Assembly (NCBI GenBank): GCA_900548385.1
Contig: URKJ01000008.1
Location: 43,585 to 107,584, forward strand
Direction of reading: 5' to 3'
DNA length: 64,000 nt
Origin: an uncultured bacterium
GTDB lineage: Bacteria > Verrucomicrobiota > Lentisphaeria > Victivallales > UBA1829
In this document: one piece after another, positions 28,216 through 46,249 of the stretch
Position numbering within the stretch: position 1 is the first letter of the stretch
Layout of the letters: each line of letters starts with the position of its first letter
The notes under the pieces: model-generated
The model's database searches: none
Told to the model about the DNA's origin: nothing
The model's input: the letters and a program-made list of their open reading frames with translations, nothing else
Made by a program: the position numbers and the translations under genes

Positions 28216-28234
28216 GAAACAGGGAGAAATCAGA

Positions 28235-29620
28235 ATGATACAGAGAATACATGATATTTACCGTCCCGTTGACCAGCGCCGTCGGGATTTCCGCGAAGTC
28301 GAACGCCCGCTGTCGTGTGCCGAACTCCATGAACAGGCGTCCCGCTGTATGGAATGCGGAATTCCGTTCTGTCACGGAGCGGGGTGTCCGCTCGGCAATG
28401 TGATTCCGGAATTCAACGCCGCAGCCGCCGCCGGAGAGTGGCGGAAAGCATGGGAGATCCTTTCGTCGACCAGCAGTTTTCCGGAATTCACCTGCCGCGT
28501 TTGTCCGGCGCTCTGTGAAGGTTCCTGCACCAACGGCATTGACGGAGAGGCGGTAATGATCCGCCAGATCGAGAAAAAGATAGTCGAAACCGCCGGTAAG
28601 AACGGCTGGATGAAGCCTTTTGTTCCGGAAAAGCGCAATGGCAGACGCGTCGCTGTGATCGGAGCCGGACCGGCGGGACTCGCCGCCGCGGATGAGCTGA
28701 ACCGGCTCGGATATCAGGTAACCGTTTACGAGGCTCATGCCGCACCGGGCGGACTGCTCCGTTACGGCATTCCGGATTTCAAACTGGAGAAAAGCGTGAT
28801 CGAACGGCGGATCGAACGGATGAAACAGTCCGGGATCGGGTTTGTCTGCGGGACGCGTGTCGGAAAGGATATTTCGGCAGATTACCTTGCACGGTGTTCC
28901 GATGCCGTGGTTCTGGCGGTCGGAACGCCGGAAGCGCGCGATCTGCGTCTGCCCGGCCGCGAACTTTCCGGAATTCATTTTGCTCTGGAATTTTTGCAAG
29001 GACAGAACCGGGTGATCGGCGGCGAGATTGCGACCGTTCCCGTTTCCGCCGCAGGAAAACGGGTCGTGGTGATCGGCGGCGGCGATACCGGAAGCGATTG
29101 CGTCGGTACGTCGCTGCGGCAGGGGGCTGCGAGTGTTCTTCAGATTGAGATCATGCCGGAACCGCCGGCGGAACGTTCGCCCTCCACACCGTGGCCGCAG
29201 TGGCCGTATCTGCTGCGTACCAGTTCCAGCCATAAAGAGGGCGGCGAACGGCAATGGGGTGTTCAGACGACCGCTTTCACGGGCGAGCATGGACATGTTG
29301 CCGCACTTGAAACGGTTGCGGTCAAATGGGAGTTCAGCCCCGCCGGGCGTCCTTTGAAATTTGCCGCGGTTCCCGGTTCGGAACGGAAGATCGGGGCGGA
29401 CCTCGTTCTGCTTGCGATGGGCTTTACCGGAGTCCGGCCCGACGGCGTGGCTGCGGAACTGGGACTCGCGGTCGATCCGCGCGGCAGAGTGCTGGAAGAT
29501 CCTGCCCGGAAAGTGTTCTGCTGCGGCGATACCGCTTCCGGAGCGTCGCTGGTTGTCCGGGCTCTGGCGGATGGGAAACGGACGGCTCACCGTCTGGATG
29601 CCGCATTCCGCGGAATGTGA
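28235..29620 (+). CDS. gltD: Glutamate synthase small subunit (NAD(P)H-dependent)
   Basis: 461 aa. Fe-S Cys cluster CMECGIPFCH and dinucleotide fold VAVIGAGPAGLAAADEL. Confidence 0.95.
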   Translation: MIQRIHDIYRPVDQRRRDFREVERPLSCAELHEQASRCMECGIPFCHGAGCPLGNVIPEFNAAAAAGEWRKAWEILSSTSSFPEFTCRVCPALCEGSCTNGIDGEAVMIRQIEKKIVETAGKNGWMKPFVPEKRNGRRVAVIGAGPAGLAAADELNRLGYQVTVYEAHAAPGGLLRYGIPDFKLEKSVIERRIERMKQSGIGFVCGTRVGKDISADYLARCSDAVVLAVGTPEARDLRLPGRELSGIHFALEFLQGQNRVIGGEIATVPVSAAGKRVVVIGGGDTGSDCVGTSLRQGAASVLQIEIMPEPPAERSPSTPWPQWPYLLRTSSSHKEGGERQWGVQTTAFTGEHGHVAALETVAVKWEFSPAGRPLKFAAVPGSERKIGADLVLLAMGFTGVRPDGVAAELGLAVDPRGRVLEDPARKVFCCGDTASGASLVVRALADGKRTAHRLDAAFRGM

Positions 29621-29637
29621 ATATTCCGGCAAAATAT

Positions 29638-29682
29638 CCCGCAAAACGGATTCCGGCAGCTTGATTCCATTCGTTTTGCGGG
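29638..29682 (+). terminator. 11-bp perfect stem-loop between gltD and the sigma-54 activator gene (terminator or processing/attenuation element)
   Basis: CCCGCAAAACG ... CGTTTTGCGGG with a 23-nt loop, 18 nt after the gltD stop. No clear T-tract follows. Confidence 0.4.
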
Positions 29683-29746
29683 TACATTATGCAGGTGCCG
29701 GATATGGCGCAGATTGAAAACTTGATAACACGGGGAACGGAAAGCA

Positions 29747-31300
29747 ATGCCGCAAAGAAAACATGAACTGAGTCCGGAAATCACTGTTTTGCAGGAGATC
29801 AGCTATGCGGTGGTGCATCATCAGCGCAATGTTGATGATCTGCTGAATGAGATACTTGCCGTGCTTGACCGGCGTATGGGAATGTTGCGCGGTACGATTA
29901 CTTTACTGCACGGCGATACGTTGAAAATCGAAGTTTCGCACGGTATTGATGAAAGCGGGATGCAGCGGGGGCTGTATCATCTCGGAGAAGGGATTACCGG
30001 AATGGTCGCCCAGACCGGAAAGCCGGAACTCGTGCCGGATATCGCCAAAGACGCCCGGTTCCTCAACCGGACCCGGTCCCGTAAATACGATCATCCGGTC
30101 GCGTTTATCTGCGTGCCGGTTTTTCACATGGAGCGGGTGATCGGAACGCTGAGTATTGACCGCCGGATCGAACCGGATACCGACTTGAACCGTGACATGG
30201 CGCTTCTGGAGACCATCGGCAACATCGTGGCGGATGCCGTCGCCGTATGCCGGAAGGAACACGAGGAGCGCGAAGATCTGCTGGAAGAGAACCGCAAGCT
30301 GCGCAAAATGCTCAATGAGACTCCAGGTGAGCTGATCGGGAACTGCCGCAGTATGCAGAATATTTACGGACTGATCCGTCAGGTGGCGCCTTCCGATGCG
30401 ACCGTGCTGATCCGGGGCAGTTCCGGAACCGGAAAGGAACTTGTCGCGAGGGCGATCGTTCAGTTGTCCGGACGCAGTTCCAAACCGTTCGTTGCCCTGA
30501 ACTGCGCCGCTTTACCGGAGAATCTGGTCGAAAGCGAATTGTTCGGACATGAGAAAGGCGCTTTTACCGGAGCGACCTGCCGCCGGATCGGGCGCGCGGA
30601 GGCTGCGGACGGCGGAACGCTTTTTCTTGATGAAGTCGGCGATCTGACCCTGCAAACTCAGGTGAAACTCCTGCGGTTTATTCAGGAACGTACCTTTTCA
30701 CGGGTCGGGAGCAATCAGGAATTGCGGTCGAATGTCCGTTTCCTTGCCGCCACCAGCCGCAACCTCGAAGAGCTGATGCGGCAGAAGAAGTTCCGCGAAG
30801 ACCTGTATTACCGGCTGAATATTTTCCCGATCGTGATGCCGGATTTGTGCAAGCGCCGCTGTGACATCATTCTGCTGGCGGAGCATTTCATTGAAAAGCT
30901 GAATGTCCGGTACGGCAAGCAGGTGAAACGGCTTTCCACGCCCGCGATCAACATGCTGATGAGTTACCACTGGCCCGGCAATGTGCGGGAACTGGAAAAC
31001 TGCATCGAACGCGCCGTTCTGACTGCCACCGACGACTGCATTCACGGCTACAATCTGCCGCCGTCTCTGCAGACCGGAAAGGAATCCGGTTCCGATCTTC
31101 TGCCGGAGGGCAAGGCGTCGTTCAACACGCTTGTGGATTCCTATGAACGGGAGCTGATCGTTGAGGCGCTGAAACGGAACTTCGGCAATATGTCCGCCGC
31201 GGCGCGTGATCTTGATCTCTCTCCGCGCGTGATCCATTATAAAATCGGTCGTCTCGGCATTACTCCCGAATGGTATCAGCAGGAACGTCCGCTTTCCTGA
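29747..31300 (+). CDS. Sigma-54-dependent transcriptional activator with N-terminal GAF domain (NifA-like architecture)
   Basis: GAF-like N-terminus. AAA+ sigma-54 interaction domain with [17 protein letters not shown] and the [15 protein letters not shown] (GAFTGA) motif. C-terminal Fis-type [24 protein letters not shown]. No receiver domain. Confidence 0.92.
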
Positions 31301-32661: not shown

Positions 32662-34392
32662 TTAGAACTGCGGGAGCGGGAATGCCGCAGTAAACGCTTT
32701 CACTTCTTCGGCGATGGCGGCAAGCGCGGCATCGTCGTTGCGGTTTTCCACGGCGCGGTTGATGAAATCGGCGATCCTGAGCATTTCCGGCTCTTTCATG
32801 CCGCGGGTCGTGACGGCGGGCGTTCCGATACGGATACCGCTGGTGACCATCGGTTTTTCCGGATCGAACGGGATCATATTCTTGTTGACGGTGATGAGCG
32901 CTTTGTCGAGCGCGGTGGCGACGTCTTTTCCGGTCGCCTGTTTCGGACGGAGGTCAACGAGCATGAGATGGTTGTCCGTTCCGCCGGAGACGATGCGGAA
33001 GCCTTTGTCCACAAGAGCTTGGGCAAGAACCGCCGCGTTTTTGACAAGCTGTTCCTGATAGGCCTTGAATTCCGGTTTCAGCGCTTCGCCGAAGCAGACG
33101 GCTTTTCCTGCAATCACATGCATCAGAGGTCCGCCCTGAATGCCGGGGAATACTTTGGAATTGACTGCTTTGAGGTACTGCTCCTTGCAGAGAATGAGCC
33201 CGCCGCGCGGCCCGCGCAGAGTTTTGTGCGTGGTCGTCGTGACAATGTCGCAGTACGGAACCGGGGAGGGATGGATGCCCGCGGCGACGAGTCCGGCGAT
33301 GTGCGCCATATCGACCATCAGCTTGGCGCCGACGGAGTCCGCAATTTCACGCAGTTTTGCAAAGTCGATTGTGCGCGGATAGGCACTGGCTCCCGCAACG
33401 ATCAGAGCGGGTTTGTGTTCGTTTGCGAGCTTCTGGAGTTCTGCATAGTCAATGGTTTCGGTGTCTTTGTTGACGCCGTAAGGGACTATGTTATAGAGCT
33501 GTCCGCTGAAATTCATCTTGTGCCCGTGGGTCAGATGTCCGCCGTGGTCAAGACTCATTGCGAGGATGGTGTCGCCGGGGTTGATGAGTGCAAAATATGC
33601 TGCCATGTTCGCCTGGGAACCGGAGTGCGGCTGAACGTTTGCCGCTTCCGCTCCGAAGAGTTTGCAGGCGCGTTCAATCGCGATCTTTTCCACTTCGTCG
33701 ACGAATTCGCAGCCGTTGTAGTAACGTTTGGCGGGATAGCCTTCCGCGTACTTGTTGGTGAGTACGGAACCCTGGGCGGCGCGGACAGCGCAGCTGGTGA
33801 AGTTTTCGGAGGCGATCAGCTCAATGCCTTCAAACTGGCGAACCGCTTCCCTGTCGATCCATTTGGCAATTTCGGGATCGCTTCCGCGGAGCGCGGCGAT
33901 GTCGTCATAAGAATCTTTTTCAAGCTGGGTGAGGCGTCTTGCATGGCGTCCGCCGACGCAGGTGAATTCCGTTCCGAGCCATGTGCTGATGATTTCGCAG
34001 ATTTCGTCGCGGGTGAGATAATCGGCGGGGATCACGAGAACGTTGGTGCAGTTGTGGTCACGGCTTGCCTTGGCGAGTTTGGTGCTGTAAGCGACGGCGG
34101 CGCGGACTCCGTGGAAACGGTTTGCCACGATGGCCATTCCGATGCCGGAGCGGCAGATCAGGATGCCTTTTTCAACCTCGCCGGCGGAGACCGCACGGGC
34201 AAGGACGGCGCCGAACGTGTTGTAATCATCTTCGGGATCGAACTTGGAGGGACCGCAGTCGATTACGTCGAGCCCTTTGGCGGAAAGCGCCGCCGTGATC
34301 TCTTTTTTGAGTTCGAAACCACCGTGGTCTGCGGCGATCGCGATGCGTTTGTCGTCTTTGTTCCAGTCGGAGATTGATTTCATTCGTGACAT
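32662..34392 (-). CDS. glyA: Fusion protein: ribose-5-phosphate isomerase B (RpiB/LacAB) domain plus serine hydroxymethyltransferase
   Basis: Residues about 15-160 carry [14 protein letters not shown] and [17 protein letters not shown] (RpiB). From about residue 165: [25 protein letters not shown] (PLP Lys) and the rest of a full-length SHMT. One uninterrupted 576-aa frame. Confidence 0.9.
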
Positions 34393-35028: not shown

Positions 35029-35748
35029 TCAATTTTTTTTCAGGGCGGAGATCAGATTTTCCAGAGTTTCCCGGCTGCTGACGGCATTGGAGTCTTCCGG
35101 TGCTGCTTTCTTTTCCGGTTTGGCAGTCGGAGTTTCCCCGTCGCCGTTCTTCTTTTCCGGATCGGAGACAGGAGTTTCCTCTTTGAAACTTCCGCCGTTT
35201 GCAAGATACAGAATCGCGGGGTATTGTTCCATCCAGACCGCCTGGGCAGGTGTCTGCGGCGTTCCGCATTGGACGGTCCGGATCATCCGCGGAAGCACCA
35301 GATTGGAGAAGCGGAGAACGTTGGGCTGGGAGACGAGAGGTATTTTGTCCACCAGAGCAACCGAGGACAGACCGAGTGTCAGCACCGCCATGCAGGCGAG
35401 CGCTCCTCCGTAGACACAGAGGAACCGGAGAACCATTGAAATATGCGTCGGATAGCTGATATGCCGGTTATCCGGCGGAAACATCTGCGAAAACGCCGCA
35501 CAGAGAATGATCATCAGGATCAGACCCGCTCCCGGCAGAGCGATCAGGGAGACCCAGCCGCGTCCGGATTCCGGCAGATACTGCAGGAGCTTCTCTATCA
35601 CATAAGGCTGGAGCCCGAATACCGTACAGCCTGCCAGCAGGGCGCTGCAGAAAAAAATCCATGCCCGTTCAAAACGCCAGCGGGACGTACAAAAGGCGAT
35701 TATCAGCGGAATTCCGAAAAAAACGATCAGTTCAAGCATTTTCTTCAT
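35029..35748 (-). CDS. Multi-pass membrane protein with a charged C-terminal tail (CvpA-like topology, tentative)
   Basis: About four hydrophobic segments (LELIVFFGIPLIIAF, WIFFCSALLAGCTVFG, WVSLIALPGAGLILMIILCAAF, LRFLCVYGGALACMAVLTLGL), then a soluble Lys/Glu/Pro-rich tail. The start is uncertain (35748 or 35739). It overlaps the end of the upstream gene. Confidence 0.6.
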   Translation of the reverse strand: MKKMLELIVFFGIPLIIAFCTSRWRFERAWIFFCSALLAGCTVFGLQPYVIEKLLQYLPESGRGWVSLIALPGAGLILMIILCAAFSQMFPPDNRHISYPTHISMVLRFLCVYGGALACMAVLTLGLSSVALVDKIPLVSQPNVLRFSNLVLPRMIRTVQCGTPQTPAQAVWMEQYPAILYLANGGSFKEETPVSDPEKKNGDGETPTAKPEKKAAPEDSNAVSSRETLENLISALKKN

Positions 35749-38700
35749 CCTCCATATTGGGAAGTGCGTTATTGATCTCATCCAGTGCCACGACACCTTT
35801 GGCAGCCAGACAGTATGCCGTGATGCGGAGCAGGTTCATGCGGCCGCCGCCGTTTGTACAGCATTTCAGCCAGTCGGCGGTCGGGAGCACCGAGCCGTAA
35901 ATCACGACCGGGCGGTCTTCTCCGCTCTGGGAACATTCCATGCAGCCGTTTTTGGCGCGGAGATTGTTGTCCGGCAGATTCAGCCGGCGGAAATCTTCCC
36001 GGTTTTCCTCCGGGAGTTCCGCGTGTACGGCACAGCTGCAGAGTTTATGAAGCATCAGCGGGGAGACGATCAGTTTCAGGGTTTCCAGCATCTGCGTTTC
36101 TGAGATTCCCGCATCCAGACAGAGTTTTACCGCTTTTTCCGCAGTCGGCTGTTCCAGAAGAAGAACGATCGGTTTCACTTCCGAGAGACGGAATGCGCAG
36201 CGGATGGTTGCGGCGTCGTTCCGTTCCAGCGTGATGGCGGCGGCGCGGCAGTCCGGCAGGGCGCCAAGCAGCTGTTCAGGCGTGATTTTGGCGCTCAGGT
36301 TCGCTTTGAGACGCGGAACCTCGTTGGATCCGGCCGGTTCGTTGCCGTCGCCGATCCAGACCGTGCTGCCGAGTTTTGCGGCGAACTGTTCAAGCAGAAG
36401 CGAAATGAATGTCCGTCGCCCGTTGCCCGGCTTTCCGGTAACGATGATCAGGCCGTTCGGCTTGGCAAGGATCGAATCGACGGCTTTTTTTCCTTCCGGG
36501 GAAAGTACGAGCTGCTGGAAGCTGTGAAGCTCATCCTGAGCCCGTTTAAGCGTCAGCAGGGCGCGTTCGCCCTGAACTCCCATTCCGATCGTGCTGATCA
36601 GGACCCGTGTGCGGCTGTGTTCTTTCTGAATGGTGAAACAGCCGTTCTGCGGGTTGACTTCCTCGTAGGCGTCGAGTCCGGCAAGATTTTTCAGGATGAT
36701 GAGGATATTGCGTCCGGTCGCCATATCAAGCTGCATCAGCTGCCGGTCCTGTTTCGCCTGTTTGAGGATGATCTGATAGTTGGTTCCCGTCGGCGAGAAC
36801 AGAATTCCCGAACAGTGACGGGTGAGAGCCTGCGTGAGTATGCCCCGGCAGAGGTTGAGGAAGAGTGCGTTTTCCGGGGATGGCGCCTGGGCGCTCTCTT
36901 CGCCGTCGGCATTGAAGAAGCGCAGCGGATCCGTTTTCACCTGATCAGAGGTGCTCAGCATTCTGCTGATCCACGGACGGGCAAACGTGTACAGTTTCTG
37001 AAGCAGGATACCGATCGGCATCAGCGGCCCGGCAAAGAACGAGATCAGATTCGCCGCTTTGATCCGCGCGGTTTCTTCGCGGGGGAGCATGCGGAGCGAA
37101 AGCAGACCGCATGCGATCCAGATAAACCAGAAGACCAGGCAGGGCCACGAAAGCAGTATTTTCTGATCGCCGTATGGCGGGACGATCTCTTTTCCGGAGC
37201 TTTTTTCTCCGGCCAGTTCTTTGACAGGTTCTTTTTTGAGTTCTTCAAGAGTCTGTTTGATACTGGCGGTAAATTTGTTTTTTTCCGGAAGCTGGCCCAA
37301 AAGGTCATCTGTGGGGACAACTCCCGCTTTGAGCAGCGGAATAATGAGGTTGAACCGTTCCTGCTGCAATGCCAAGGACAGCGCGCTTTCCTGATCCAGA
37401 TTCACGGCATTGGGATTGCACGGAACCGCAAGCAGGGATTCCAGAAATTCGGTTTCCCCCTTGTTGAGACGCAGGAAGAGAATCAGCGCGGTGTCGTGAC
37501 GGCTGTTCAGTGCGGCTGCGGAAACTTTATGCGACAGCAGATAAGAGGCGGATTTCTCATTTTTGGCGAGAAGAGCCGCATGGAGCGGAGTATTCCGCAT
37601 CCAGTCGCGACAGTTCAGATTGGCGTTGTTTTCCACGAGCAGTTTCAGAGCATCGGGGTTGTTGACCGCTTCAAAGATCAGCGGAGTGCCGAGTTGGTCG
37701 CCGACATTGGGATCCGCTCCGTTTGCCAGCAGTTCTTTCATCCGCTTGAGATCGTTGGCTCTCAATGCCTTCTGAAGCAGAGTGGTGCCGTCATTCAACG
37801 GCATGTTGAGGTTTGCTTTGTGCTTGATCAGCAGCTTGAGCAGCCAGTCGTAATCGTTGTGTGCGGCGAGGTCAAGCAGGCTGTATTCTCCGTAGCGTTC
37901 ATTGGGAGTGATATAGCCTTTTTCAAACAGCAGTCCGAGAATTTCGGCGTTTTGAGATTTCAGGCTTTCCGCGAGCGCCGCCCGGATCAGCGGTTTGCGC
38001 TTTGCCGCTTCGGTTTTGTTCAGGAGGTCTCCGATCTCCTCTTTCCGTTCTTCCCGGACGTAAGAGGCAATGTGGGAAATCTGCTTGGGGTCGGGGCCGC
38101 AGGAGCGGAATGCGGCGGCGATGACTTGAAGCAGGATAAGGAGTATGGCGACTCCGGCGACAGCAAAAATGATCCGTTTTTTGTGCACTTTGAGGAAAAC
38201 GAACCGTTCCTGCGGCGGCATCTGCATCGGCGTTTCATCCTGCGGGTCCGTCTGCGGACCGCAAAGTTGATCCGCCAGACTCTTGCCGGCGGAGATCAGT
38301 TTTTCATCCACTGCAACGGTATCCGTTTTGATCCCGGCGAAAATATCGGCTGCGGGCGCGGGAGCCGCCTGCGGAATTGTGAGCGTCGGAGCCGCTGTGG
38401 AAGGGGGCGGCTGGGGGTGTGCGGGAGCCGGTGCAGCGGCTGCCTGCGGATTGAGGGTGAGCTTCGGCGGCTGGGGGACGGCTGCCGAAGGAGTTGCCGG
38501 AGCTTGTGCGAAAGACGGAGCGGCTGCCGCGGGAGCGGAAGCCGCCGGTTGCGGATTGAGAGTCAGTTTTGGCGCCGCGGGAGCTGCCGGAGCAGGAGCT
38601 GGTTTGGATTTTGCCGGTTCGTTTTTTGCCGAAGGCGCTGTGCGGAACCGCGGGATCGGCGGAGCTGCCGGAGCGGGAGCCGGGGCAGGAGCTTCCGCAA

Positions 38701-38992
38701 CGGGGACAGCGGGAGCCGGGGCAGGTGTTTCCGCAACGGGGGCAGCGGGAGCCGCCGGGGCAGGTGCTTCCGTTGCCTGTTTCAGTGTGATTTCCTGTTG
38801 ACAGGACGGGCATTGCACCTGTTCGCCCTCCATCCACATTTCCACTTTGAGTTTCTGGTTGCAGTTGGAACAGCGGCAGGTGATCGGTGTCTGTTCCGCC
38901 GTCTGTGCGGTCTGGCAGTGCGGGCAGACGACCTCGCTTCCCGCCTGAGTATCCGCTACGGAGAAAAAATTTTTACATTGTTTACAGAGCAT
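35732..38992 (-). CDS. 1086-aa mosaic protein: double zinc ribbon, Pro/Ala-rich spacer, TM segment, ankyrin repeats, further TM segments, degenerate GspE/PilB-like ATPase domain
   Basis: CKQC..CPHC and CSNC..CPSC zinc ribbons. Ankyrin-type repeats such as DGTTLLQKALRANDLKRMKELLANGADPN and RNTPLHAALLAKNEKSASYLLSH. The C-terminal region resembles T2SS/T4P assembly ATPases (NPQNGCFTI, RVLISTIGMGVQGERALLTL), but the P-loop is GKPGNGRRT (36410..36436). AAGGA RBS before the ATG. Confidence 0.8.
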   Translation of the reverse strand: MLCKQCKNFFSVADTQAGSEVVCPHCQTAQTAEQTPITCRCSNCNQKLKVEMWMEGEQVQCPSCQQEITLKQATEAPAPAAPAAPVAETPAPAPAVPVAEAPAPAPAPAAPPIPRFRTAPSAKNEPAKSKPAPAPAAPAAPKLTLNPQPAASAPAAAAPSFAQAPATPSAAVPQPPKLTLNPQAAAAPAPAHPQPPPSTAAPTLTIPQAAPAPAADIFAGIKTDTVAVDEKLISAGKSLADQLCGPQTDPQDETPMQMPPQERFVFLKVHKKRIIFAVAGVAILLILLQVIAAAFRSCGPDPKQISHIASYVREERKEEIGDLLNKTEAAKRKPLIRAALAESLKSQNAEILGLLFEKGYITPNERYGEYSLLDLAAHNDYDWLLKLLIKHKANLNMPLNDGTTLLQKALRANDLKRMKELLANGADPNVGDQLGTPLIFEAVNNPDALKLLVENNANLNCRDWMRNTPLHAALLAKNEKSASYLLSHKVSAAALNSRHDTALILFLRLNKGETEFLESLLAVPCNPNAVNLDQESALSLALQQERFNLIIPLLKAGVVPTDDLLGQLPEKNKFTASIKQTLEELKKEPVKELAGEKSSGKEIVPPYGDQKILLSWPCLVFWFIWIACGLLSLRMLPREETARIKAANLISFFAGPLMPIGILLQKLYTFARPWISRMLSTSDQVKTDPLRFFNADGEESAQAPSPENALFLNLCRGILTQALTRHCSGILFSPTGTNYQIILKQAKQDRQLMQLDMATGRNILIILKNLAGLDAYEEVNPQNGCFTIQKEHSRTRVLISTIGMGVQGERALLTLKRAQDELHSFQQLVLSPEGKKAVDSILAKPNGLIIVTGKPGNGRRTFISLLLEQFAAKLGSTVWIGDGNEPAGSNEVPRLKANLSAKITPEQLLGALPDCRAAAITLERNDAATIRCAFRLSEVKPIVLLLEQPTAEKAVKLCLDAGISETQMLETLKLIVSPLMLHKLCSCAVHAELPEENREDFRRLNLPDNNLRAKNGCMECSQSGEDRPVVIYGSVLPTADWLKCCTNGGGRMNLLRITAYCLAAKGVVALDEINNALPNMEDEENA
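38676..38780 (-). repeat. In-frame 36-nt tandem repeat (about 2.8 copies) encoding a Pro/Ala-rich spacer
   Basis: Units 38676..38711 and 38712..38747 differ at a few positions. The third unit has a 3-nt insertion. They encode the PAPA(V/A)PVAE(A/T)PAPA stretch of the 1086-aa protein. Confidence 0.8.
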
Positions 38993-39021
38993 TTTATGTG
39001 TCGATCCTTACATGTTTGTCG

Positions 39022-41196
39022 TCAGAGAGCTTGATATGCGGCAACGTCTTCCGCTGAAACTTCGCCATCCGCACAAAGTTTGTCCAGAGAACTTCTCATC
39101 GTCGTCATGCCGATGGAGGCGGAGGTTTCAAGAACCGAGAGCAGCTGATGGGTCTTGCCTTCACGGATCAGCGCCTGAACCGGCGGAGTGCCGATCATGA
39201 TCTCGAACGCCGCCACGCGGCCGTGTCCGTTCAGACGCGGGAGCAGACGCTGTGCCACGACTCCGGTCACGATATTGGAGAACTGCTGGCGGATCTGGTT
39301 CTGCTGCGCGGACGGGAAGGAGTCGACGATTCGCTCAACGGTCTGCACGGTGTTGTTGGCGTGCAGGGTCGCAAGCACCAGATGACCTGTTTCGGCGGCG
39401 GTGATTGCCGTTGCGATCGTTTCCGTATCGCGCAGCTCGCCGACGAGGATGATATTCGGCGCCTGACGCATTGCCGCGCGCAGTCCGCCTGCGAATGAAA
39501 GCGTATCCCGTCCGAGTTCCCGCTGTTCAATGAAACTGGAAATGTTCTCGTAGGTGTATTCGATCGGGTCTTCGATTGTGATGATGTGCTTGTTCTGGGT
39601 TTTGTTGATCTCGTTCAGCAGACTTGCGAGCGTGGTCGATTTACCGCTTCCGGTCGGTCCGGTGACGAGAATCAGCCCCTGTTTTTTGCTCATGAGCTGC
39701 GAGAGGACCGGAGGCAGGTTCAATTCCGCCGGAGTGGGGATGCGGTCCTGGAGTACACGGCCGACCATTGCGGGGGTTCCGCGCTGGAAGAATGCGTTCA
39801 GGCGGAAGCGCTGAAGCTGGAATTTTTTCCCCGGATCCTGACTCGGCAGCTGCGCGGTGATGGCAAAGTCGAGTTCGCGTTTTTCCTCGTATGTGACCCG
39901 CTGCTGTCTGCCGATGATACTGTAAATCAGGCGCTGAACATCTTTCGCCGCCAGTTCCGGCATACTCAGCGGAGTGAATTTGCCGCGTTTGCAGAGGACC
40001 GGCGGGGCGTTGACCACAAGCAGAAAGTCGCTGGCGCCGGAATCTGCCGCGGCTTTGAAAATATCGCGCATGTCGAGGCTGTCGAGACGGCTGGAGCGTT
40101 TGCTCTGTTCCTGTTTTTCCTCGTCGGAAAGCCCGATGTTGCGGAAGAACAGTTTCAGTTCATCGGGATTGTCCGACGCCTTCAGGGCGGTTTCTTCCGT
40201 GATCGCTCCGGATTTGACGAGACGGAACAGTGCGGTATTGAAGTTCTGCATTCCGAACTGCCCTCCGAGACGGATGGAGAGTTCCAGCCCGCTGATGTCC
40301 TGACGTTCAATCTGCTTTTTCACCGTTCCCGTGCCGACCAGGATCTCCTGTGCGGGGACAAGGCCGGAGCCGTCGGCGCGCGGAAGCAGGCGCTGGGAGA
40401 TGACCGCTTCCAGAACCTGCGCAAGGTTGTAGGTCATCTGTTCGCGGGAACCTTCCGGGCACATGTTGATCAGACGTTTCACGGTTCCGGCGGCGTCGCT
40501 GGTGTGGAGAGTCGAGAAAACGAGGTGACCGGTCTGTGCGGCGGTAACCGCGATCTGCATCGTTTCCAAATCGCGCATTTCACCGATCATGATGACGTCG
40601 GGGCTTTCGCGCAGGGCATTGCGGAGCGCTTCGCCAAAGCCGGAACCGAGTGCGTCGACTTCACGCTGGGAGATCAGTGACAGCTTATCCTGATGGAGAT
40701 ATTCGATCGGGTCTTCCAGTGTCAGAATATGCTTGCGGCTGTTGGAGTTGATATAGTCGATCATGGCGGTCAGTGTGGTGGACTTTCCGCTTCCGGTGGT
40801 TCCGGTCACGAGGACCAGCCCGCGTTCCAGCATGGCGATCTTGCGGATCGTATCTGCGAGGCCGAGCTTTTCAAAGTCGAGTTTGCCGCCCATGCGGATC
40901 GGTCTTGCCACGAAGCAGGGACCGTTGACCGTTTCAAAAAAGTTCATACGGAAACGGTTCTGCGGGTCGTAAATATAGGAGATGTCGTAGCCGCGGGTAT
41001 GGGTATATTTCTCTTCCCCCGCCGTTCCGATCAGGGAGATTCGGAACTGGTTGATCTCTTCCGGCGTGATTTCCGGGAACTCCACCTGAAGCATTTCTCC
41101 GCCGGAACGGCAGGACGGGACTTTCCCGGAGGAAATAAACAGGTCGGTTACCTTGTTTTCCAGAGCGAATTTCAGCAGTGTGACGATGTTTTCCAT
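39022..41196 (-). CDS. pilT: Tandem-domain PilT-family ATPase (N-terminal PilU-like module fused to C-terminal PilT-like module)
   Basis: Module 1 has GTTGSGKSTT, DVIMIGEMRD and GHLVFSTLHT. Module 2 has GPTGSGKSTT, NIILVGELRD and GHLVLATLHA, plus an AIRNLIRE-like motif (ALIREGKTHQ). They are joined by an acidic/Ser-rich linker SDEEKQEQSKRSSRLDSLD. A single 724-aa frame. Confidence 0.9.
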   Translation of the reverse strand: MENIVTLLKFALENKVTDLFISSGKVPSCRSGGEMLQVEFPEITPEEINQFRISLIGTAGEEKYTHTRGYDISYIYDPQNRFRMNFFETVNGPCFVARPIRMGGKLDFEKLGLADTIRKIAMLERGLVLVTGTTGSGKSTTLTAMIDYINSNSRKHILTLEDPIEYLHQDKLSLISQREVDALGSGFGEALRNALRESPDVIMIGEMRDLETMQIAVTAAQTGHLVFSTLHTSDAAGTVKRLINMCPEGSREQMTYNLAQVLEAVISQRLLPRADGSGLVPAQEILVGTGTVKKQIERQDISGLELSIRLGGQFGMQNFNTALFRLVKSGAITEETALKASDNPDELKLFFRNIGLSDEEKQEQSKRSSRLDSLDMRDIFKAAADSGASDFLLVVNAPPVLCKRGKFTPLSMPELAAKDVQRLIYSIIGRQQRVTYEEKRELDFAITAQLPSQDPGKKFQLQRFRLNAFFQRGTPAMVGRVLQDRIPTPAELNLPPVLSQLMSKKQGLILVTGPTGSGKSTTLASLLNEINKTQNKHIITIEDPIEYTYENISSFIEQRELGRDTLSFAGGLRAAMRQAPNIILVGELRDTETIATAITAAETGHLVLATLHANNTVQTVERIVDSFPSAQQNQIRQQFSNIVTGVVAQRLLPRLNGHGRVAAFEIMIGTPPVQALIREGKTHQLLSVLETSASIGMTTMRSSLDKLCADGEVSAEDVAAYQAL

Positions 41197-41570
41197 GAGT
41201 TAGGCCTGTTCGTTTAAGGTTGTTTCCGGCGATCCGGACGGCAGACGCCTGTCTGCTGCGGTCCCGTTTATCTTATTGCTTTATTGTGTGACAGAATTGT
41301 TTTCTCCGGTTGTTCATGACAAATCATCGGAAAACAATTTGCCATAATCGTATTCGTCATATTATAGCATGAATACATGGAAAAATCAAGAGCATTTCAG
41401 GGATTCTCATAAGAAACAGAGGGCTGAAACCGTTTTCCGGAACAGAAAATGCGTATTCAGAATATGGGTTATCGGGATGACCGCTTGTGGAATATTTTTA
41501 TGAGGTGTAAAGAATTTTGATAAAATTGCAAACCTGTAATTTTTTTGTCATGCTCCCGTTATCTGGACAG

Positions 41571-41629: not shown

Positions 41630-43018
41630 ATGAACACATACGGAATACGGACTTTGAAAATGATCACATGGATTGTCGCCGGACTGTCGCTGGCGGGAGC
41701 GTTTCACATGCTGTTTACGATGAATGTCAGCTCTTTCGTTGTCAACGGGTTCAGTTTTGTGCTGCTGATGTTCGGGCTGATCGTCTCCTGCATCACGCTG
41801 GGGTATTTTCTGCTTCAGGGGATTCTTGCCTGGTTTTACAAGGAGGCGCCGTCTCTGAACGATTCCGAGTTGCCGAAATGCACCGTGATCGTTCCCGCCT
41901 ATAACGAAGGGGAATACGTCGCGACCACACTCCGCAGTGTGCTGGAGAGCGATTATCCGGCGGACAAGTTGGAAGTCATTGCCGTGAACGACGGTTCCAG
42001 GGATGATACGTGGGACTGGATCTGCAAGGCTGCCCGGGAGTTTCCGGGCAGGATCGTCGCCAAAAATCTGATCCGCAACGGAGGCAAACGCCGGGCGCTT
42101 TATGAAGCGATCAAGATTGCGACCGGCGATATTGCCGTGACGATCGACAGCGATTCCGCGATTACGGTTGATGCGCTCCGCAGGATTGTCGCGCCGTTTG
42201 CCAAACCGACAGTCGGCGCGGTTGCCGGAAATATCCGGGTGACCAATCTGGAAGAGGGAATGATTCCGAAAATGCTGGATGTTGCGTTCGCATTCGGTTT
42301 TGAGTTCATCCGTTGTGCGCAGAGTCTGATCGGTTCGGTGCTCTGCACGCCGGGAGCGCTCAGTGCATACCGTCTTTCTGCAATCCGCCCGCTGATGGAG
42401 GAATGGGTCAATCAGACGTTTATGGGGCGCCCTTCCGGTATTGGCGAGGATCGCGCGATTACCAGTATGCTCCTCCGGGAAAACTGGCGCGTGGAGTTTC
42501 AGCATAACGCGATCGCATTCACCAAAATGCCGGTTAATTATAAGACGCTCTGCAAGATGCTGATCCGTTGGACGCGCAGTGATATTCGTGAAAATCTGAT
42601 TATGCTCGGCGTGGTTCTCCGCCGGTTCGAACCGTTCAATCCGGAACTGCTCGGGTTGCAGCTGAACCTGATCGTGCAGAGTATTGCGATCCTTCTTCCG
42701 ATCGTTTTCATTCCGATGGGGTTGTTCGGGTTTGTGGTCAATCCGCCGCTGTTCCTGTACTACACGGTGATCAGCACAATGGTGTGGTCTGTGGTTCCCG
42801 CGGTGATCTATGGCATGCGTTACGGCTGGGGGGAAGCGGTATGGTCGTTCATCTATGGCTTGTACAGCATCCCGTGTCTCAGCTGGCTTCCCGTTTATTC
42901 GCTGATTACGGTTCAGAATTCCAAATGGATGACACGCGGAGTGCCCGTGAAACCGGCTCCGATCCTTACGATCACACAGCCGATTCCCGCCGGAGCGGTC
43001 CGGGACCGTGCTGCGTAA
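41630..43018 (+). CDS. Membrane-embedded processive family-2 glycosyltransferase (HasA/NodC/chitin-synthase-like)
   Basis: VIVPAYNEGEY, IAVNDGSRDDT, VTIDSDSA (DxD), GEDRAITS and LIRWTRS (the QxxRW-type motif). Hydrophobic segments flank the catalytic domain at both the N- and C-termini. Confidence 0.85.
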   Translation: MNTYGIRTLKMITWIVAGLSLAGAFHMLFTMNVSSFVVNGFSFVLLMFGLIVSCITLGYFLLQGILAWFYKEAPSLNDSELPKCTVIVPAYNEGEYVATTLRSVLESDYPADKLEVIAVNDGSRDDTWDWICKAAREFPGRIVAKNLIRNGGKRRALYEAIKIATGDIAVTIDSDSAITVDALRRIVAPFAKPTVGAVAGNIRVTNLEEGMIPKMLDVAFAFGFEFIRCAQSLIGSVLCTPGALSAYRLSAIRPLMEEWVNQTFMGRPSGIGEDRAITSMLLRENWRVEFQHNAIAFTKMPVNYKTLCKMLIRWTRSDIRENLIMLGVVLRRFEPFNPELLGLQLNLIVQSIAILLPIVFIPMGLFGFVVNPPLFLYYTVISTMVWSVVPAVIYGMRYGWGEAVWSFIYGLYSIPCLSWLPVYSLITVQNSKWMTRGVPVKPAPILTITQPIPAGAVRDRAA

Positions 43019-43045
43019 AGAGGTTTTTCCTTAAAAGTAATAAAG

Positions 43046-43088
43046 ACGGAGTGTCTGTTCCCCGGTTCGGAGATGCTCCGTTTTTTTT
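43046..43088 (+). terminator. Rho-independent terminator after the GT2 gene
   Basis: ACGGAG ... CTCCGT stem followed by a T8 run (43081..43088). Confidence 0.6.
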
Positions 43089-43094
43089 ATGGTA

Positions 43095-43580
43095 TTATTG
43101 CTTTCCGGATTCCGGGACGATATCCGGTTCGTTTTTCCGTGTCGCCGCGGGTTTTCCGGAATCGGCGGGACGGCTTTCCAGCAGTTTCCGGTAATATTCC
43201 TTTTTGTATTTCAGAACTTCAAACTGCTGCTGGAGATTTTCGAGCTGACTGCGCAGGCTCTCTTCCTGCTGAAAGATGATGCGGGCGCGTTCCGGGATCG
43301 TGGAATCTCCTTTTTCGCACATGCGGATATAACGGCGGACCTGCTCAATCGGCAGTCCGGTCGCCCGCAGGCAGTGAACCAGACGCAGCCAGCTGACCGC
43401 GTATTCGGAAAACATGCGGATGTTGCCGTCCGTCCGGTCCACGCCGGGGATCAGATCGGAGTTCTCATAATAACGGATCGTGTGCGGGGAAAGGTTCATC
43501 AGCTCGGCAACTTTTTTTACGGTATATTTCGGTGTGCGGTCCTGCGACGGGACAAACGGGCGTATCTTTGCCATGTTCAA
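43095..43580 (-). CDS. MerR-family transcriptional regulator
   Basis: YTVKKVAELMNLSPHTIRYYENSDLIPGVDRTDGNIRMF HTH/wing, followed by a coiled-coil dimerisation helix. 161 aa. Confidence 0.88.
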   Translation of the reverse strand: MNMAKIRPFVPSQDRTPKYTVKKVAELMNLSPHTIRYYENSDLIPGVDRTDGNIRMFSEYAVSWLRLVHCLRATGLPIEQVRRYIRMCEKGDSTIPERARIIFQQEESLRSQLENLQQQFEVLKYKKEYYRKLLESRPADSGKPAATRKNEPDIVPESGKQ

Positions 43581-43744
43581 TTCCTTCCGGTTCTGTTTCC
43601 GGATAAAATAGCAGATTTCCGGAAAAAATCAAATTTACCGTATTTTCTGTCCGTTTTTCTCCGCTTTTTATTGGACAATATTACGATTATGTGTTATTTT
43701 TTCCGTTGTTTTCCGCTTTGTCCAAACGCATCGGGCGAAGTGCG

Positions 43745-43752
43745 TGTATAAT
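43745..43752 (+). promoter_or_regulatory. Candidate extended -10 promoter element (TGTATAAT)
   Basis: TGTATAAT lies 35 nt upstream of the ATG at 43787, which has an AAGGAG RBS at 43775..43780. Confidence 0.4.
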
Positions 43753-43786
43753 ATGGTCAGACAGCCAACTTAACAAGGAGTTTGTC

Positions 43787-46249
43787 ATGCATCTGAAAAA
43801 TGTGACTTTGGAACTCAGTTCCAAGCCGTTCCGGGATGAATCCGAGGCGACCATGTATTCGGTCTGCCGCCACATGTTTACGCAGTGGAAGGATCTGACC
43901 GACACGGCGGATGTGGTGTCGGTCATGCTGTGGACTTCGGACGGCAGTGAGATTTTTGAATATACCGGAGATCTCTCTCAGCGTTTTGAATGGGCATACT
44001 GGTGCGGATGCGCCAATCATTGTACCCGTCCGGAAAATCCGACGGAACGGGAGAAGCATCATACGCATAATTTCCCCGTCAAATATATTCCGGAGGCGGG
44101 GCCGCGGCCGTATTCCTGGTTGAAACGCCTGATCGAAGTTCTCCGCGAAACCGGACGGGAGATTACCGGAAAGCCGATCCGCATCGGTGCAACGTATGAT
44201 AACGGTCCGGAGTTTGCCATCTCCAAATTCAAGTATAAGACGCATCGGGAGATTGCGCAGGGGCACACCATGTTTCCGAACAGTGTCGTTACCTGCACCG
44301 CACGCCTGCACGCTGATCCGCAGCCGTATGCCGGATTTCCCGGCGGGATTCCGGAAGGAACGTCGGTCGGCACATTTCTTGCGAAACAGTTCAAGGCGTT
44401 TGCCCGTGACCTTGGTTTTGATTATCTCTGGCTTTCCAACGGAATGGGCTTCGGTACGGAGACCTGGGGGATCACCGGGATGCTTTTTGACAAAAAGCGG
44501 TTTTATCCGGAAAAGGCGGATGAAGCCGCACAGAAAATGCTGGATTTCTGGAAAGATTTCACCGAAGCATATCCGGAATGCGTGATCGAAACGCGCGGAA
44601 GCAATTTTTCCGCCGGAGTGGAGATCGCCACGGATGCCTGTCCGATCCGCGAACTGTACCGCGATTACAAAATCGCCCCGCCTGTGAACTCGCCGTGGGC
44701 GGCGTTGAATTTCAATACCGGGCTTGAGATCGTCGCGTGGATGTCTCATGTGGCGGAACTGCCCGACGAGCGTTTCCCGTTCCGCTTCTATATCCATGAT
44801 CCGTGGTTTATGAACAGCCCGTGGCTTGACCGCTACGGCAGGGAGCCGTGGGATCTTTTCCAGCCGCTGAGCATCGGACGGATCGACGGGAAAGGGCGCG
44901 TGAGCATGGCAAACAGCGTTGCCATGCTGTCGGTCGACGATACCTGGGGGCGGATGCCGGATCAGGTTCCCCGTGAAGTGATTCCGCTTCTGCACGATGC
45001 GTTCGACAACGGTCCCGACCGCCCCGGTCCGCTTGTCTGGATCTATCCGTTTGACGAATATTCCGAACTGGTGCGCGGTGCGGATCCCCGGCCGGATGTC
45101 GTATTCACCGAGGATATGTTCATCGGCGAATGCGTACAGGAGGGGGTGCCGCTGAATACGGTCGTCAGTACAGGCAATTTCCGCCGGCTGATGGCGGACC
45201 GCAGCCGCTGTCTGGATTCATCCGTGCTTGTCGTTCCCGTTTCCGCCGCGGATGGCGCGAATATGGATGCGTTGGAGCATTTCCTCGGAAACGGCGGCAA
45301 AGTTCTGTTCTACGGAGCGCTTCAAGGCGCGTCGGAACGACTCCGTTCTCTGCTTCAGCTGAGATGCGATACCGCCGTATCGGGAGATGTGACGATTGAA
45401 AACCGGATGCCGGGGGACTGTTATCAGGGGGCTTCTCCTGCCGCGACCGCGCATATCCTGCCGCAGTTCGCCTGCGGCGGACTGGTCGAGGTTCCGGCGG
45501 AAAATGCGGCATCGAAGCCGTGTGCCTGGGCAGTCCGCGACGGAGTCCGCCGTGTCGCCGCATTGCGCCGCACTCTGGAAAACGGGGCGGAGATCGGATT
45601 CGTCCGTGCGATTCTACCCTCCGCCGCGGAAGTGAAGCCCGGACGCGGATTCGATTACGGCAGCCGGACGGAGATTTATCCGACGCCGCGGCTCATGCGT
45701 GATCTGCTGGCGGAATTCGGCTGGAAGATCCGCTGTTTCGCTTACAATGAAGAAACGCAGATGCCGCGGACCTGTATTTCCCGGCACGATAACGCATTCT
45801 TCTTCACCGTCTATGCTCCCGACACAACGGCGGAAATGCGTGTGAATTCTCCGTATGGCGCGCCGCTGTTGAGCGAGATGGAAACACGGATCGACGAAAA
45901 CGGCGATGCGGTCTGGCATCCCGGAAAATGCTGGCACAGGGAGTGCCGCTGTTTCGTGAAACAGTCGCAGCCGTCGGTGATCTCCGCAAAGATTCAGCAT
46001 CAGGCGTTTCCGTACTATTCGGAGATCGGACGCCGCAACTATTCCGGCTTCCGCGATGCGGAAGTGCGGTTTTTCGTGCCGGAGTCGGCAAAGGGCAAAC
46101 TGGAGATCGTCAATTCTCCGGACAGTGCGGAGTACAGGCTGTTCTCCCTGACGCCGGTTGAATATGAATGGGAGAAGACTCCCGCCGGAACCTGTGCGGT
46201 TCTGAAACATGTAAACGGTTATCTTTACTTTTCCATGGTGAACGAATGA
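43787..46249 (+). CDS. Cytoplasmic 820-aa protein of unknown function (possible glycoside hydrolase/phosphorylase-like multidomain enzyme)
   Basis: Strong RBS and no signal peptide. Aromatic/Asp-rich stretches such as DLGFDYLWLSNGMGFGTETWG and IHDPWFMNSPWLDRYGREPWD. A mid-region (SVLVVPVSAADGANMDALEHFLGNGGKVLFYG) is reminiscent of the GATase-like trimerisation domain of GH42/GH112 enzymes. I cannot assign a family by eye. Confidence 0.6.
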   Translation: MHLKNVTLELSSKPFRDESEATMYSVCRHMFTQWKDLTDTADVVSVMLWTSDGSEIFEYTGDLSQRFEWAYWCGCANHCTRPENPTEREKHHTHNFPVKYIPEAGPRPYSWLKRLIEVLRETGREITGKPIRIGATYDNGPEFAISKFKYKTHREIAQGHTMFPNSVVTCTARLHADPQPYAGFPGGIPEGTSVGTFLAKQFKAFARDLGFDYLWLSNGMGFGTETWGITGMLFDKKRFYPEKADEAAQKMLDFWKDFTEAYPECVIETRGSNFSAGVEIATDACPIRELYRDYKIAPPVNSPWAALNFNTGLEIVAWMSHVAELPDERFPFRFYIHDPWFMNSPWLDRYGREPWDLFQPLSIGRIDGKGRVSMANSVAMLSVDDTWGRMPDQVPREVIPLLHDAFDNGPDRPGPLVWIYPFDEYSELVRGADPRPDVVFTEDMFIGECVQEGVPLNTVVSTGNFRRLMADRSRCLDSSVLVVPVSAADGANMDALEHFLGNGGKVLFYGALQGASERLRSLLQLRCDTAVSGDVTIENRMPGDCYQGASPAATAHILPQFACGGLVEVPAENAASKPCAWAVRDGVRRVAALRRTLENGAEIGFVRAILPSAAEVKPGRGFDYGSRTEIYPTPRLMRDLLAEFGWKIRCFAYNEETQMPRTCISRHDNAFFFTVYAPDTTAEMRVNSPYGAPLLSEMETRIDENGDAVWHPGKCWHRECRCFVKQSQPSVISAKIQHQAFPYYSEIGRRNYSGFRDAEVRFFVPESAKGKLEIVNSPDSAEYRLFSLTPVEYEWEKTPAGTCAVLKHVNGYLYFSMVNE

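Follow-up and report, generated by a model that had tools for sequence, protein, structure and literature searches.

Bitopic platform proteins of the GspL and PilM-PilN type hold a cytoplasmic motor at the inner membrane and extend into the periplasm. A precedent for motors that are themselves dead comes from type IV pili, in which catalytically inactive (Walker-box-dead) PilT still supports PilU-driven retraction (review PMC11656802). The protein described here lies in a 64,000-nucleotide stretch of DNA (the window) from a gut Victivallales bacterium, and is encoded by a 1086-aa ORF with an ATG start (35732..38992, minus strand), which joins zinc ribbons and ankyrin repeats to a degenerate PilB/GspE-like domain. 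On balance we somewhat favor the view that it is a paralogue of the PilB/GspE extension ATPases, catalytically dead and integrated in the membrane, most likely serving as a structural adaptor rather than an enzyme.

A degenerate but constrained PilB/GspE-like domain

An earlier note, made from the sequence alone, likened the C-terminal region by eye to secretion and pilus assembly ATPases. Profile and structure comparison, set beforehand as the test of that likeness, agree that the C-terminal ~390 aa have the PilB/GspE fold. Pfam T2SSE covers residues 713-871 at 59.1 bits (cut-off 24.9; 3.8e-16), and phmmer matches PilF, GspE and PilB in the PDB across the N2 and C-terminal (CTD) domains at E 1e-9 to 1e-6. 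Residues 601-1086 as modeled by AF2 (pLDDT 87.9) match PilB 5zfr in Foldseek (E 9.5e-29; TM up to 0.76), extension ATPases ranking ahead of PilT. Pfam T2SSE and Foldseek delimit an N2-like domain at residues 706-828 (36509..36877, minus strand), and phmmer and Foldseek the degenerate ATPase core with its C-terminal subdomain at residues 829-1086 (35735..36508, minus strand). NCBIfam equivalog scores reach 49-59 bits against cut-offs of 617-675.

All of the catalytic motifs of the window protein are degenerate, and the same holds for its orthologues, to identities as low as 23%. The P-loop, GKPGNGRRT (residues 853-861; 36410..36436, minus strand), aligns with GPTGSGKS(F)T of PilF and carries Arg in place of both Lys and Ser/Thr, while the His box position reads LLLEQP, the His being lost. 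These two losses were recognized in the earlier note; to them we add the Asp box (IGDGNEP, E to G), Walker B (GEIRD to TLERND) and the N2 arginine (RPQDG to NPQNG). The cysteine cluster LCSC...GCMEC is retained at the position of the GspE zinc site, as had been proposed (C985-x-C987 ... C1017-xx-C1020, residues 985-1020; 35933..36040, minus strand). Alignments A3 and A4 show no change at any of the four Cys, the cluster is present in 28 of 28 members of the wider clade discussed below, and the first pair is CxC rather than CxxC.

This dead ATPase-like domain is the most constrained region of the protein. Identity to the orthologue P0002 is 56% in the CTD core vs 34% in the ankyrin block, and dN/dS is 0.079 in N2 and 0.11 in the CTD, compared with 0.19 in the ankyrin block. 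Because the catalytic motifs have been lost through the orthologues, yet the domain is the best conserved (dN/dS 0.08-0.11), we regard it as a functional pseudoenzyme, in agreement with the pseudo-ATPase first postulated, for which its sequence suggests a scaffold role. Constraint on the core would also be expected of a nucleotide-binding sensor or atypical weak NTPase, undergoing a conformational switch without normal hydrolysis, in which binding of ATP or some other phosphorylated ligand would persist at the conserved GxxGxGRRT loop. The overall fold and the glycine framework of the P-loop are retained, GNGRRTF and WIGxGxEP are shared by orthologues just 33-47% identical, and the GNGRRTF loop, kept in P0001, P0002 and P0004, could indeed still bind nucleotide or some other phosphate ligand. 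We nevertheless consider this reading unlikely, as the P-loop is erased, glycines included, in P0003 (GGNTAARYK) and P0022 (GDSDGT), which otherwise retain the architecture, and nucleotide binding is therefore not essential to the shared function of the family. Further, the Walker B Glu is not conserved (P0002 reads TVKKDD), and the His-box His and N2 Arg are gone.

Gene neighbors, relatives and a possible adaptor role

Upstream, and ending 29 nt ahead of the pseudo-ATPase gene, is a gene encoding a 724-aa tandem double PilT (39022..41196, minus strand; TIGR01420 in two stretches, 796 bits), both halves of which have intact Walker A, Walker B and His box motifs. A promoter-like site precedes it, by consensus match only (41361..41389, minus strand; TTGATT-17-TATAAT, 10/12, TG). 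In a small synteny sample of the zinc-ribbon clade (n=5 lineages), tandem PilT is directly upstream in four (the window, L009, L012/13 and L008, the upstream gene of L008 having a PilT-like C-terminus), and no tandem PilT adjoins the P0003 locus. Tandem PilTs that adjoin a pseudo-PilB gene are 66-69% identical to that of the window, vs 52-55% for those without such a neighbor. As tandem PilT, far commoner in Lentisphaeria (at least 120 clusters) than the pseudo-PilB protein, also occurs at loci lacking the latter, and as P0003 lacks PilT, the link is not obligatory.

The downstream gene encodes a 236-aa four-TM protein (35029..35739, minus strand) and overlaps the pseudo-ATPase stop codon by 8 nt. 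A gene of this family is directly downstream, overlapping or <20 nt apart, in 9/9 sampled lineages, its products sharing 20-40% identity (alignment A1). The window protein has no Pfam or NCBIfam match; two family members show weak Colicin_V/CvpA matches below cut-off (E 1.9e-5 and 6e-3), and one carries PF02674 as a precomputed call. Save for a DUF1559 prepilin-like gene 30 kb off, no pilin, platform (GspF/PilC) or secretin gene is present in the window.

By phmmer, the nearest relatives are proteins of ~490 aa from Lentisphaeria and Ca. Ozemobacteraceae (P0005-P0018 and others), which make up an undescribed clade of GspE-like proteins with a membrane anchor. Their annotations go no further than 'GspE/PulE family protein' or 'type II/IV secretion system protein'. 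In common with the window protein, the clade has a module composed of a transmembrane segment (TM-a), a positive loop and a Gly-Pro (GP) helix (the module HMM matches 27/151 sequences), a CxC motif in many members, and a 4-TM gene immediately downstream in all sampled loci. Unlike the window protein, these relatives lack zinc ribbons, tether, TM1 and ankyrin block, and 9 of 28 representatives are catalytically intact, the other 19 being degenerate; nor does a tandem PilT adjoin the sampled loci, L018 instead having RcpC and an FHA-T2SSE ATPase.

Together these findings suggest that the pseudo-ATPase domain, which retains the PilB fold and probably the surfaces for oligomer and partner contacts, may pair with the translationally coupled 4-TM protein and recruit the intact tandem PilT as an energy source. 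Its TM segments would then couple the PilT motor to a periplasmic ligand of the ankyrin block. The data do not distinguish activation from inhibition of the tandem PilT by pseudo-PilB. Conserved adjacency to tandem PilT would also fit an inhibitor or decoy, one that sequesters PilT or poisons mixed hexamers and so keeps the motor idle at the membrane, to be released once the ankyrin block receives a signal from the periplasm, and the layout resembles that of a transmembrane signaling protein, with repeats in the periplasm and an output domain in the cytoplasm. Such a function appears improbable, however, given that the intact clade members P0008 and P0018 share the membrane module and 4-TM partner without a PilT neighbor, which makes a working part of a machine, rather than an inhibitor, the likelier ancestral state.

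N-terminal region and membrane topology

As noted from the sequence, the adaptor proposed here begins with two zinc ribbons (residues 1-70; 38783..38992, minus strand), evident from their Cys pairs (C3xxC6...C23xxC26 and C39xC41xxC44...C61xxC64) and modeled confidently as short beta-hairpins (AF2, pLDDT 78-91). Pfam matches are sub-threshold only (Zn_ribbon_8, E 0.008), and all four Cys of the first ribbon are invariant among 7 orthologues. The Pro/Ala-rich tether that follows (residues 71-265; 38198..38782, minus strand), delimited by AF2 pLDDT and motifs, contains one helix (230-244) and is predicted to be disordered over about residues 71-225 (pLDDT 35-50), which corresponds to the spacer of ~150 aa recognized earlier. 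The motifs PKLTLNPQ (twice) and PTLTIPQ are invariant among strains, in which the copy number of a 12-aa tether repeat differs; length polymorphism (cluster members 1070-1086 aa) arises at a 36-nt tandem repeat in this linker (38672..38772; 2.7 copies, TRF score 154). The tether also bears PPIPRFR (residues 111-117; 38642..38662, minus strand), an instance of a short linear motif, P(I/V)P(R/H)FR, which is kept in the window protein, P0001, P0002, P0004 (twice) and P0022, and is not found in P0003, the sole lineage without an adjoining tandem PilT. The ribbons and this ~200-aa disordered tether are probably cytoplasmic.

Three hydrophobic segments are present, as first described: TM1 at residues 274-295 (38108..38173, minus strand; Kyte-Doolittle (KD) 2.97), TM-a at 612-633 with a conserved W..G motif (37094..37159, minus strand; KD 2.09), and a third at 646-666 (KD 1.75). 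The last begins the GP helix, a Gly-Pro-kinked hydrophobic/amphipathic element identified from AF2 and conservation (646-679; 36956..37057, minus strand), in which G655 and P656 are invariant in the orthologue alignment and the model breaks between helices 642-653 and 657-679. Between TM1 and TM-a (residues 298-600; 37193..38101, minus strand), the ankyrin-type repeats of the earlier note resolve into a helical cap followed by six helix-pair repeats at 372-555 (AF2, pLDDT ~90). This block matches Pfam Ank_2 at 4.7e-17, with Ank, Ank_3 and Ank_4 also above threshold.

The side of the membrane on which the ankyrin block sits had been left open, and can now be narrowed towards the periplasm by comparison with relatives. 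P0049 has the order protein kinase domain, TM, TM-a, GP helix, T2SSE, and P0009 and P0055 the order signal-peptide-like segment, domain, TM-a (with GP helix), ATPase. As a kinase domain or signal peptide precedes the module in these relatives, the third hydrophobic segment is probably non-spanning, which would place the cap and repeats in the periplasm. Charge bias around TM1 (5 K/R before vs 2 after; 4-5 vs 1-4 in orthologues) points to an N-in orientation. TM1 would thus pass outwards and TM-a return, with the GP helix in or on the cytoplasmic leaflet and the N2 and ATPase-like domain, with its zinc cluster, on the cytoplasmic side. In minimal clade members the N-tail is devoid of K/R (8/8), and the loop and the stretch past the GP helix are positively charged.

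Bacterial ankyrin repeats are usually cytoplasmic, and the GP segment equals TM-a in hydrophobicity in some orthologues (KD 1.75-2.5), as might be expected if there were three spans, or a TM-a/GP hairpin, with the ankyrin block cytoplasmic and the zinc-ribbon end outside. We judge this quite unlikely, since no signal peptide precedes the zinc ribbons, the N-side of TM1 carries 4-5 K/R, and the short TM-a/GP-helix loop carries 2-6. Moreover, P0049 flanks the same three segments with an ATP-dependent kinase and a T2SSE domain, and after their signal-peptide-like start P0009 and P0055 have only TM-a and the GP helix before the ATPase. A pseudogene in decay, or an artefact of assembly or fusion, might be suspected from the loss of all catalytic motifs and from an overlapping antisense ORF (836 aa; 36524-39034, plus strand), but this is highly improbable and was rejected, as the 1086-aa mosaic ORF exists as noted, identical on 23 contigs from many independent assemblies (90% cluster of 74 members), homologues at 33-47% identity keep its domain order, and dN/dS, 0.16 overall in comparison with L007 (84% identical), falls to its lowest value in the 'dead' domain.

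Comparison with described systems

The proposed adaptor shares with the PilB/GspE ATPases its N2 and C-terminal ATPase fold, a T2SSE Pfam score and the tetracysteine zinc site. It differs in lacking an N1/MshEN domain, in being covalently membrane-anchored, in its degenerate Walker A, Asp box, Walker B, His box and N2 arginine, and in its CxC first Cys pair. The downstream partner resembles CvpA/Colicin_V (PF02674) inner-membrane proteins in its four TM helices, and is distinguished from them by an extra charged tail of ~100 aa. The role that we propose is analogous to that of GspL or PilM-PilN, with no relationship in sequence or fold; unlike in those proteins, the tether to the motor would itself have the PilB fold, and ankyrin repeats would form the periplasmic part. 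The likeness to PilT-PilU lies in the use of an inactive secretion-ATPase ring as an adaptor for a second, active PilT-family ATPase (PMC11656802). Whereas that case concerns engineered mutants of a soluble retraction ATPase, the window protein would represent a natural, membrane-anchored, PilB-like dead partner, whose interaction with PilT is at present a proposal.

Fold and catalytic motifs of the pseudo-ATPase

The ATG-started ORF at window positions 35732-38992(-) encodes the 1086-aa protein anticipated by the earlier note, which is a T2SSE superfamily member by both fold and profile. Pfam T2SSE (PF00437) matches residues 713-871 at 59.1 bits (cut-off 24.9), PDB chains of PilF, GspE and PilB match the C-terminal region across N2 and the ATPase core (E 1e-9 to 1e-6), and Foldseek, queried with an AF2 model of residues 601-1086 (pLDDT 87.9, from 112 aligned sequences), returns PilB, PilF and GspE at E 1e-27 to 1e-29 (TM ≤0.76 over ~390 columns), ahead of PilT and DotB. 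The resemblance to the N2 and ATPase domains of type II secretion and type IV pilus motors proposed in that note is borne out and, as both profile and structure matches are significant, a C-terminal region devoid of T2SSE similarity can be set aside. Unlike PilB and GspE proper, however, the protein combines this N2 and RecA-like C-terminal fold with no Pfam match to an MshEN/N1 domain, and with scores of only 49-59 bits against the NCBIfam equivalogs TIGR02533, TIGR02538 and NF007755, whose cut-offs lie at 617-675. It should be named a PilB/GspE-like pseudo-ATPase, rather than GspE or PilB.

Motifs were read from an alignment to PilF and to 150 relatives, and every catalytic-motif test is failed. 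Walker A (GxxGxGK[ST]) reads GKPGNGRRT, Arg replacing both the Lys and the Ser/Thr; IGDGNEP stands at the Asp box (IEDPxE), TLERND at Walker B (GEIRD), LLEQP at the His box (TLHTN), and NPQNG at RPQDG of N2. The degenerate P-loop lacking GKT/S and the lost His box reported earlier are thus confirmed, as is a retained Cys cluster at the GspE zinc site, where the putative ligands C985, C987, C1017 and C1020 are invariant and spaced CxC...CxxC, not CxxC...CxxC. Orthologues P0002, P0003, P0004 and P0022 (47%, 38%, 33% and 23% identity) are degenerate at the same sites in different ways, with the P-loop glycines themselves absent from P0003 and P0022. Constraint on the domain persists. The ATPase-like core is the best conserved region (identity to P0002 is 56%, and 34% in the ankyrin block), and dN/dS relative to an 84%-identical copy in a Lentisphaeria MAG (locus L007) is 0.08 for N2, 0.11 for the core and 0.19 for the ankyrin block (0.16 overall). 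The pseudo-ATPase fold is still under strong selection, adjoining an intact double PilT, and the suspected pseudo-ATPase, with all catalytic motifs degenerate and the domain still constrained, is on sequence grounds a functional pseudoenzyme rather than a decaying gene.

The identical 1086-aa protein was read on 23 contigs and recurs across many independent assemblies from the human gut; its cluster at 90% holds 74 members, one bearing the annotation 'ATPase, T2SS/T4P/T4SS family [Victivallales bacterium]'. An 836-aa antisense ORF at 36524-39034(+) overlaps the gene; it translates to meaningless sequence rich in Arg, Gly and Cys, so that in all likelihood it reflects codon bias in a gene of 55-60% GC and is not itself a gene.

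Domain architecture and the membrane-anchored clade

The full-length AF2 model (pLDDT 75.9) begins with two Cys4 patterns in residues 1-70. The Cys pattern of these putative zinc ribbons is conserved and they are modelled as confident small beta-hairpins, yet every Pfam zinc-ribbon match is sub-threshold. There follow a disordered, Pro/Ala-rich tether (residues 71-225), a single helix (230-244), a first membrane segment, TM1 (271-296 in the model; hydrophobic at 274-295), a helical cap (302-357), and an ankyrin block of six helix pairs (372-555, pLDDT ~90), for which Ank_2 scores 62.8 bits against a cut-off of 27.3 (E 4.7e-17), and Ank_4, Ank and Ank_3 likewise exceed their Pfam cut-offs. Beyond it lie a second segment, TM-a (616-635; hydrophobic at 612-633), and a third, the GP helix, modelled as 642-653 and 657-679 with a break at an invariant Gly-Pro (hydrophobic at 646-666), which leads into the N2 and C-terminal domain fold. 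The ribbons, spacer, three hydrophobic segments and ankyrin-type repeats of the earlier description are accordingly all present. Within the tether, a short P(I/V)P(R/H)FR motif is kept in every zinc-ribbon lineage but P0003, and PKLTLNPQ-type repeats show no variation among strains; length variants of 1070-1086 aa arise because a 36-nt repeat varies in copy number.

An exhaustive phmmer search with residues 620-1086 against 1.84 billion representatives yielded only five clusters below 1e-30. Four of the five have the zinc-ribbon/TM architecture; the ankyrin block is present in three of these and absent from P0003. The next-ranking matches (P0005-P0018 and others) are ~490-aa proteins which start straight at TM-a, followed by a basic loop, an 'FxGP' helix and a GspE-like domain; they are labelled only 'GspE/PulE family protein', and their hosts are Lentisphaeria and Ca. 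Ozemobacteraceae. Their TM module was located by hydropathy scanning and a dedicated HMM (TM-a, basic loop and GP helix before N2). This HMM matches 27 of 151 sequences, including 11 non-seeds; the pseudo-ATPase, itself a seed, scores 77 bits and the non-seed P0001 72 bits. Among 28 clade representatives, a sample biased towards the degenerate query, Walker A, Walker B and His box are intact in nine, at least one is degenerate in 19, and the Cys cluster is kept in all 28. The motor fold of this clade has lost catalysis repeatedly. No description of the pseudo-ATPase architecture, of a membrane-anchored PilB/GspE, or of a tandem PilT was found in the searchable literature. Other fusions met among the relatives join a Ser/Thr kinase, TM segments and T2SSE (P0049, P0041), GspF-like domains and two T2SSE domains (P0019, 1047 aa), and a sigma-54 activator AAA+ domain, MshEN and T2SSE (P0074).

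The three-gene unit and its neighbourhood

The gene for a 724-aa tandem double PilT (39022-41196(-)) ends 29 nt upstream of the pseudo-ATPase gene. TIGR01420 matches the product in two stretches at 796 bits, and Walker A, Walker B and His box are intact in both halves, each a complete PilT unit and 31% identical to the other; an AIRNLIRE-like motif (VQALIRE) occurs only in the C-terminal half. Downstream follows the gene for a 236-aa four-TM protein (35029-35739(-)), whose start overlaps the pseudo-ATPase stop codon by 8 nt. Upstream of the PilT gene lies a promoter-like site, and no terminator-like site was found on the coding strand inside the three-gene unit.

Scans of genome contigs and of metagenome contigs each recovered one further, closely related locus only, so that synteny statistics rest on lineages reached by exact look-ups. 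The PilT/pseudo-ATPase/4-TM order recurs with P0004 (locus L009, where a prepilin peptidase gene lies just upstream) and with P0022 (L012/13); upstream of P0002 (L008) lies a PilT-like C-terminus, and P0003 is without both an adjacent PilT and the PxPRFR motif. A 4-TM homologue lies directly downstream in every sampled clade locus (L008-L010, L012, L014, L017, L018, L020), its gene overlapping, or beginning at most 16 nt from, the ATPase-like gene. These 4-TM proteins are 20-40% identical (alignment A1). The window's member has no match to Colicin_V/CvpA (PF02674), for which two relatives give weak sub-threshold matches (best 25.1 bits, cut-off 29.3), and profile searches with it returned close relatives only, and no annotated family. 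Lentisphaeria has many tandem PilTs, in at least 120 clusters that span 49-100% identity. Those adjoining a pseudo-ATPase are 66-69% identical to the window's, and two sampled at 52-55% have no pseudo-ATPase neighbour. At L025, a further tandem PilT is followed by a gene that was considered as a homologue and rejected, as it encodes a repetitive beta-helix protein. On the Lentisphaeria contig L018 (6843-12639), a catalytically intact gene of the membrane-anchored GspE-like type, together with its 4-TM partner, is flanked by a LysM protein on one side and by RcpC and an FHA-T2SSE (CpaF-like) ATPase on the other, a second example of such a pair adjoining another secretion ATPase.

The 64-kb window holds no pilin, platform or secretin gene, bar a DUF1559 (SBP_bac_10) gene of the PVC prepilin-like type at 4451-5245(-), the sole type-IV-filament-related gene outside the unit. 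The flanking genes for a low-molecular-weight (LMW) phosphotyrosine phosphatase, an RpiB-SHMT fusion, SerRS and GT2 proteins are not conserved with the unit; the phosphatase and the divergent GT2 were rejected as parts of the system because neither is conserved beside orthologues. The fusion (32662-34392(-), 576 aa) joins a ribose-5-phosphate isomerase B domain (LacAB_rpiB, 17-156) to a complete serine hydroxymethyltransferase (170-544), and is also called in related contigs. Divergent from the PilT operon, 41630-46249(+) encodes the chitin/hyaluronan-synthase-like GT2 (462 aa) together with 220-aa and 820-aa proteins that have no Pfam or NCBIfam match, all conserved in close relatives only. 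Further off, a nitrogen-assimilation cluster (19422-31300) comprises type III glutamine synthetase, glutamate synthase large and small subunits and a GAF-sigma-54 activator, beside an unannotated 603-aa ORF (19422-21233).

Sidedness, possible roles and known systems

We lean towards an adaptor model for the pseudo-ATPase, the tandem PilT and the 4-TM partner, and consider it somewhat probable. The dead PilB-like domain would form a membrane-fixed docking ring or surface, acting together with the coupled 4-TM protein; the energy, in this lineage, would come from the adjacent tandem PilT, and the transmembrane segments of the pseudo-ATPase would join that motor to a periplasmic ankyrin block. 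More speculatively, and with considerable doubt, the membrane-anchored GspE-like protein and its 4-TM partner may represent an unrecognised minimal inner-membrane machine of the type IV filament ATPase superfamily, with the motor covalently wired by its own TM helix to a variable periplasmic domain, enabling mechanotransmission without a GspF/PilC platform; in Victivallales, its own catalysis would have been lost, with power supplied by the tandem PilT and output through the periplasmic ankyrin repeats. The conserved GNGRRTF loop could alternatively serve a ligand-binding switch, an unlikely reading that is weakened by orthologues lacking any P-loop. Equally, the protein might act on its neighbour PilT as an inhibitor or decoy, which we regard as improbable.

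A cytoplasmic ankyrin block would require a different topology, and is rather improbable in light of the relatives. In P0049 a protein kinase domain (97-348) is followed by a single TM segment, ~100 aa, TM-a and the GP helix, before an intact T2SSE; as kinase and T2SSE are both ATP-dependent and must be cytoplasmic, only two of its three segments can span the membrane. P0009 and P0055 have a signal-peptide-like start, then a domain of ~170-200 aa, then TM-a, a layout in which TM-a must run out-to-in and the GP helix must not cross. Charge patterns point the same way: Lys and Arg are absent from the N-tail of eight minimal members, whose short loop carries 1-4 of them and whose segment following the GP helix carries 2-6, and TM1 of the zinc-ribbon clade is flanked by 4-5 Lys/Arg on its N-side versus 1-4 on its C-side. 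Together, these features suggest as the most economical topology that zinc ribbons and tether lie inside, the ankyrin block is periplasmic, the pseudo-ATPase is inside, and the GP helix is an interfacial or re-entrant element. The puzzle of sidedness posed by an odd number of hydrophobic segments is thereby narrowed to a probable periplasmic ankyrin block. Finally, a pseudogene or artefact is hardly credible, being refuted by the identical ORF in many assemblies, the architecture shared among relatives, and dN/dS.

The usual picture of PilB/GspE-family ATPases is of soluble, hexameric motors docking onto membrane platforms that are separate from them. The present locus reveals a lineage in which the motor fold is integral to the membrane and joined to an ankyrin domain that is probably periplasmic. 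It is notable, with few lineages sampled, for an unrecognised membrane-anchored clade, repeated loss of catalysis, probably periplasmic ankyrin repeats and pairing with a tandem PilT. The locus is also a case in which periplasmic ankyrin repeats can be put to the test, within Lentisphaerota, to our knowledge a common phylum of the human gut with an envelope machinery that has hardly been studied. Should the adaptor model be true, this would be a natural dead motor ring relaying the work of a second ATPase, a relay that we know of so far only with engineered PilT mutants. The precedent for the adaptor model is found in PilT-PilU, where PilT inactivated in its Walker box still supports retraction, and PilU provides the drive (PMC11656802).
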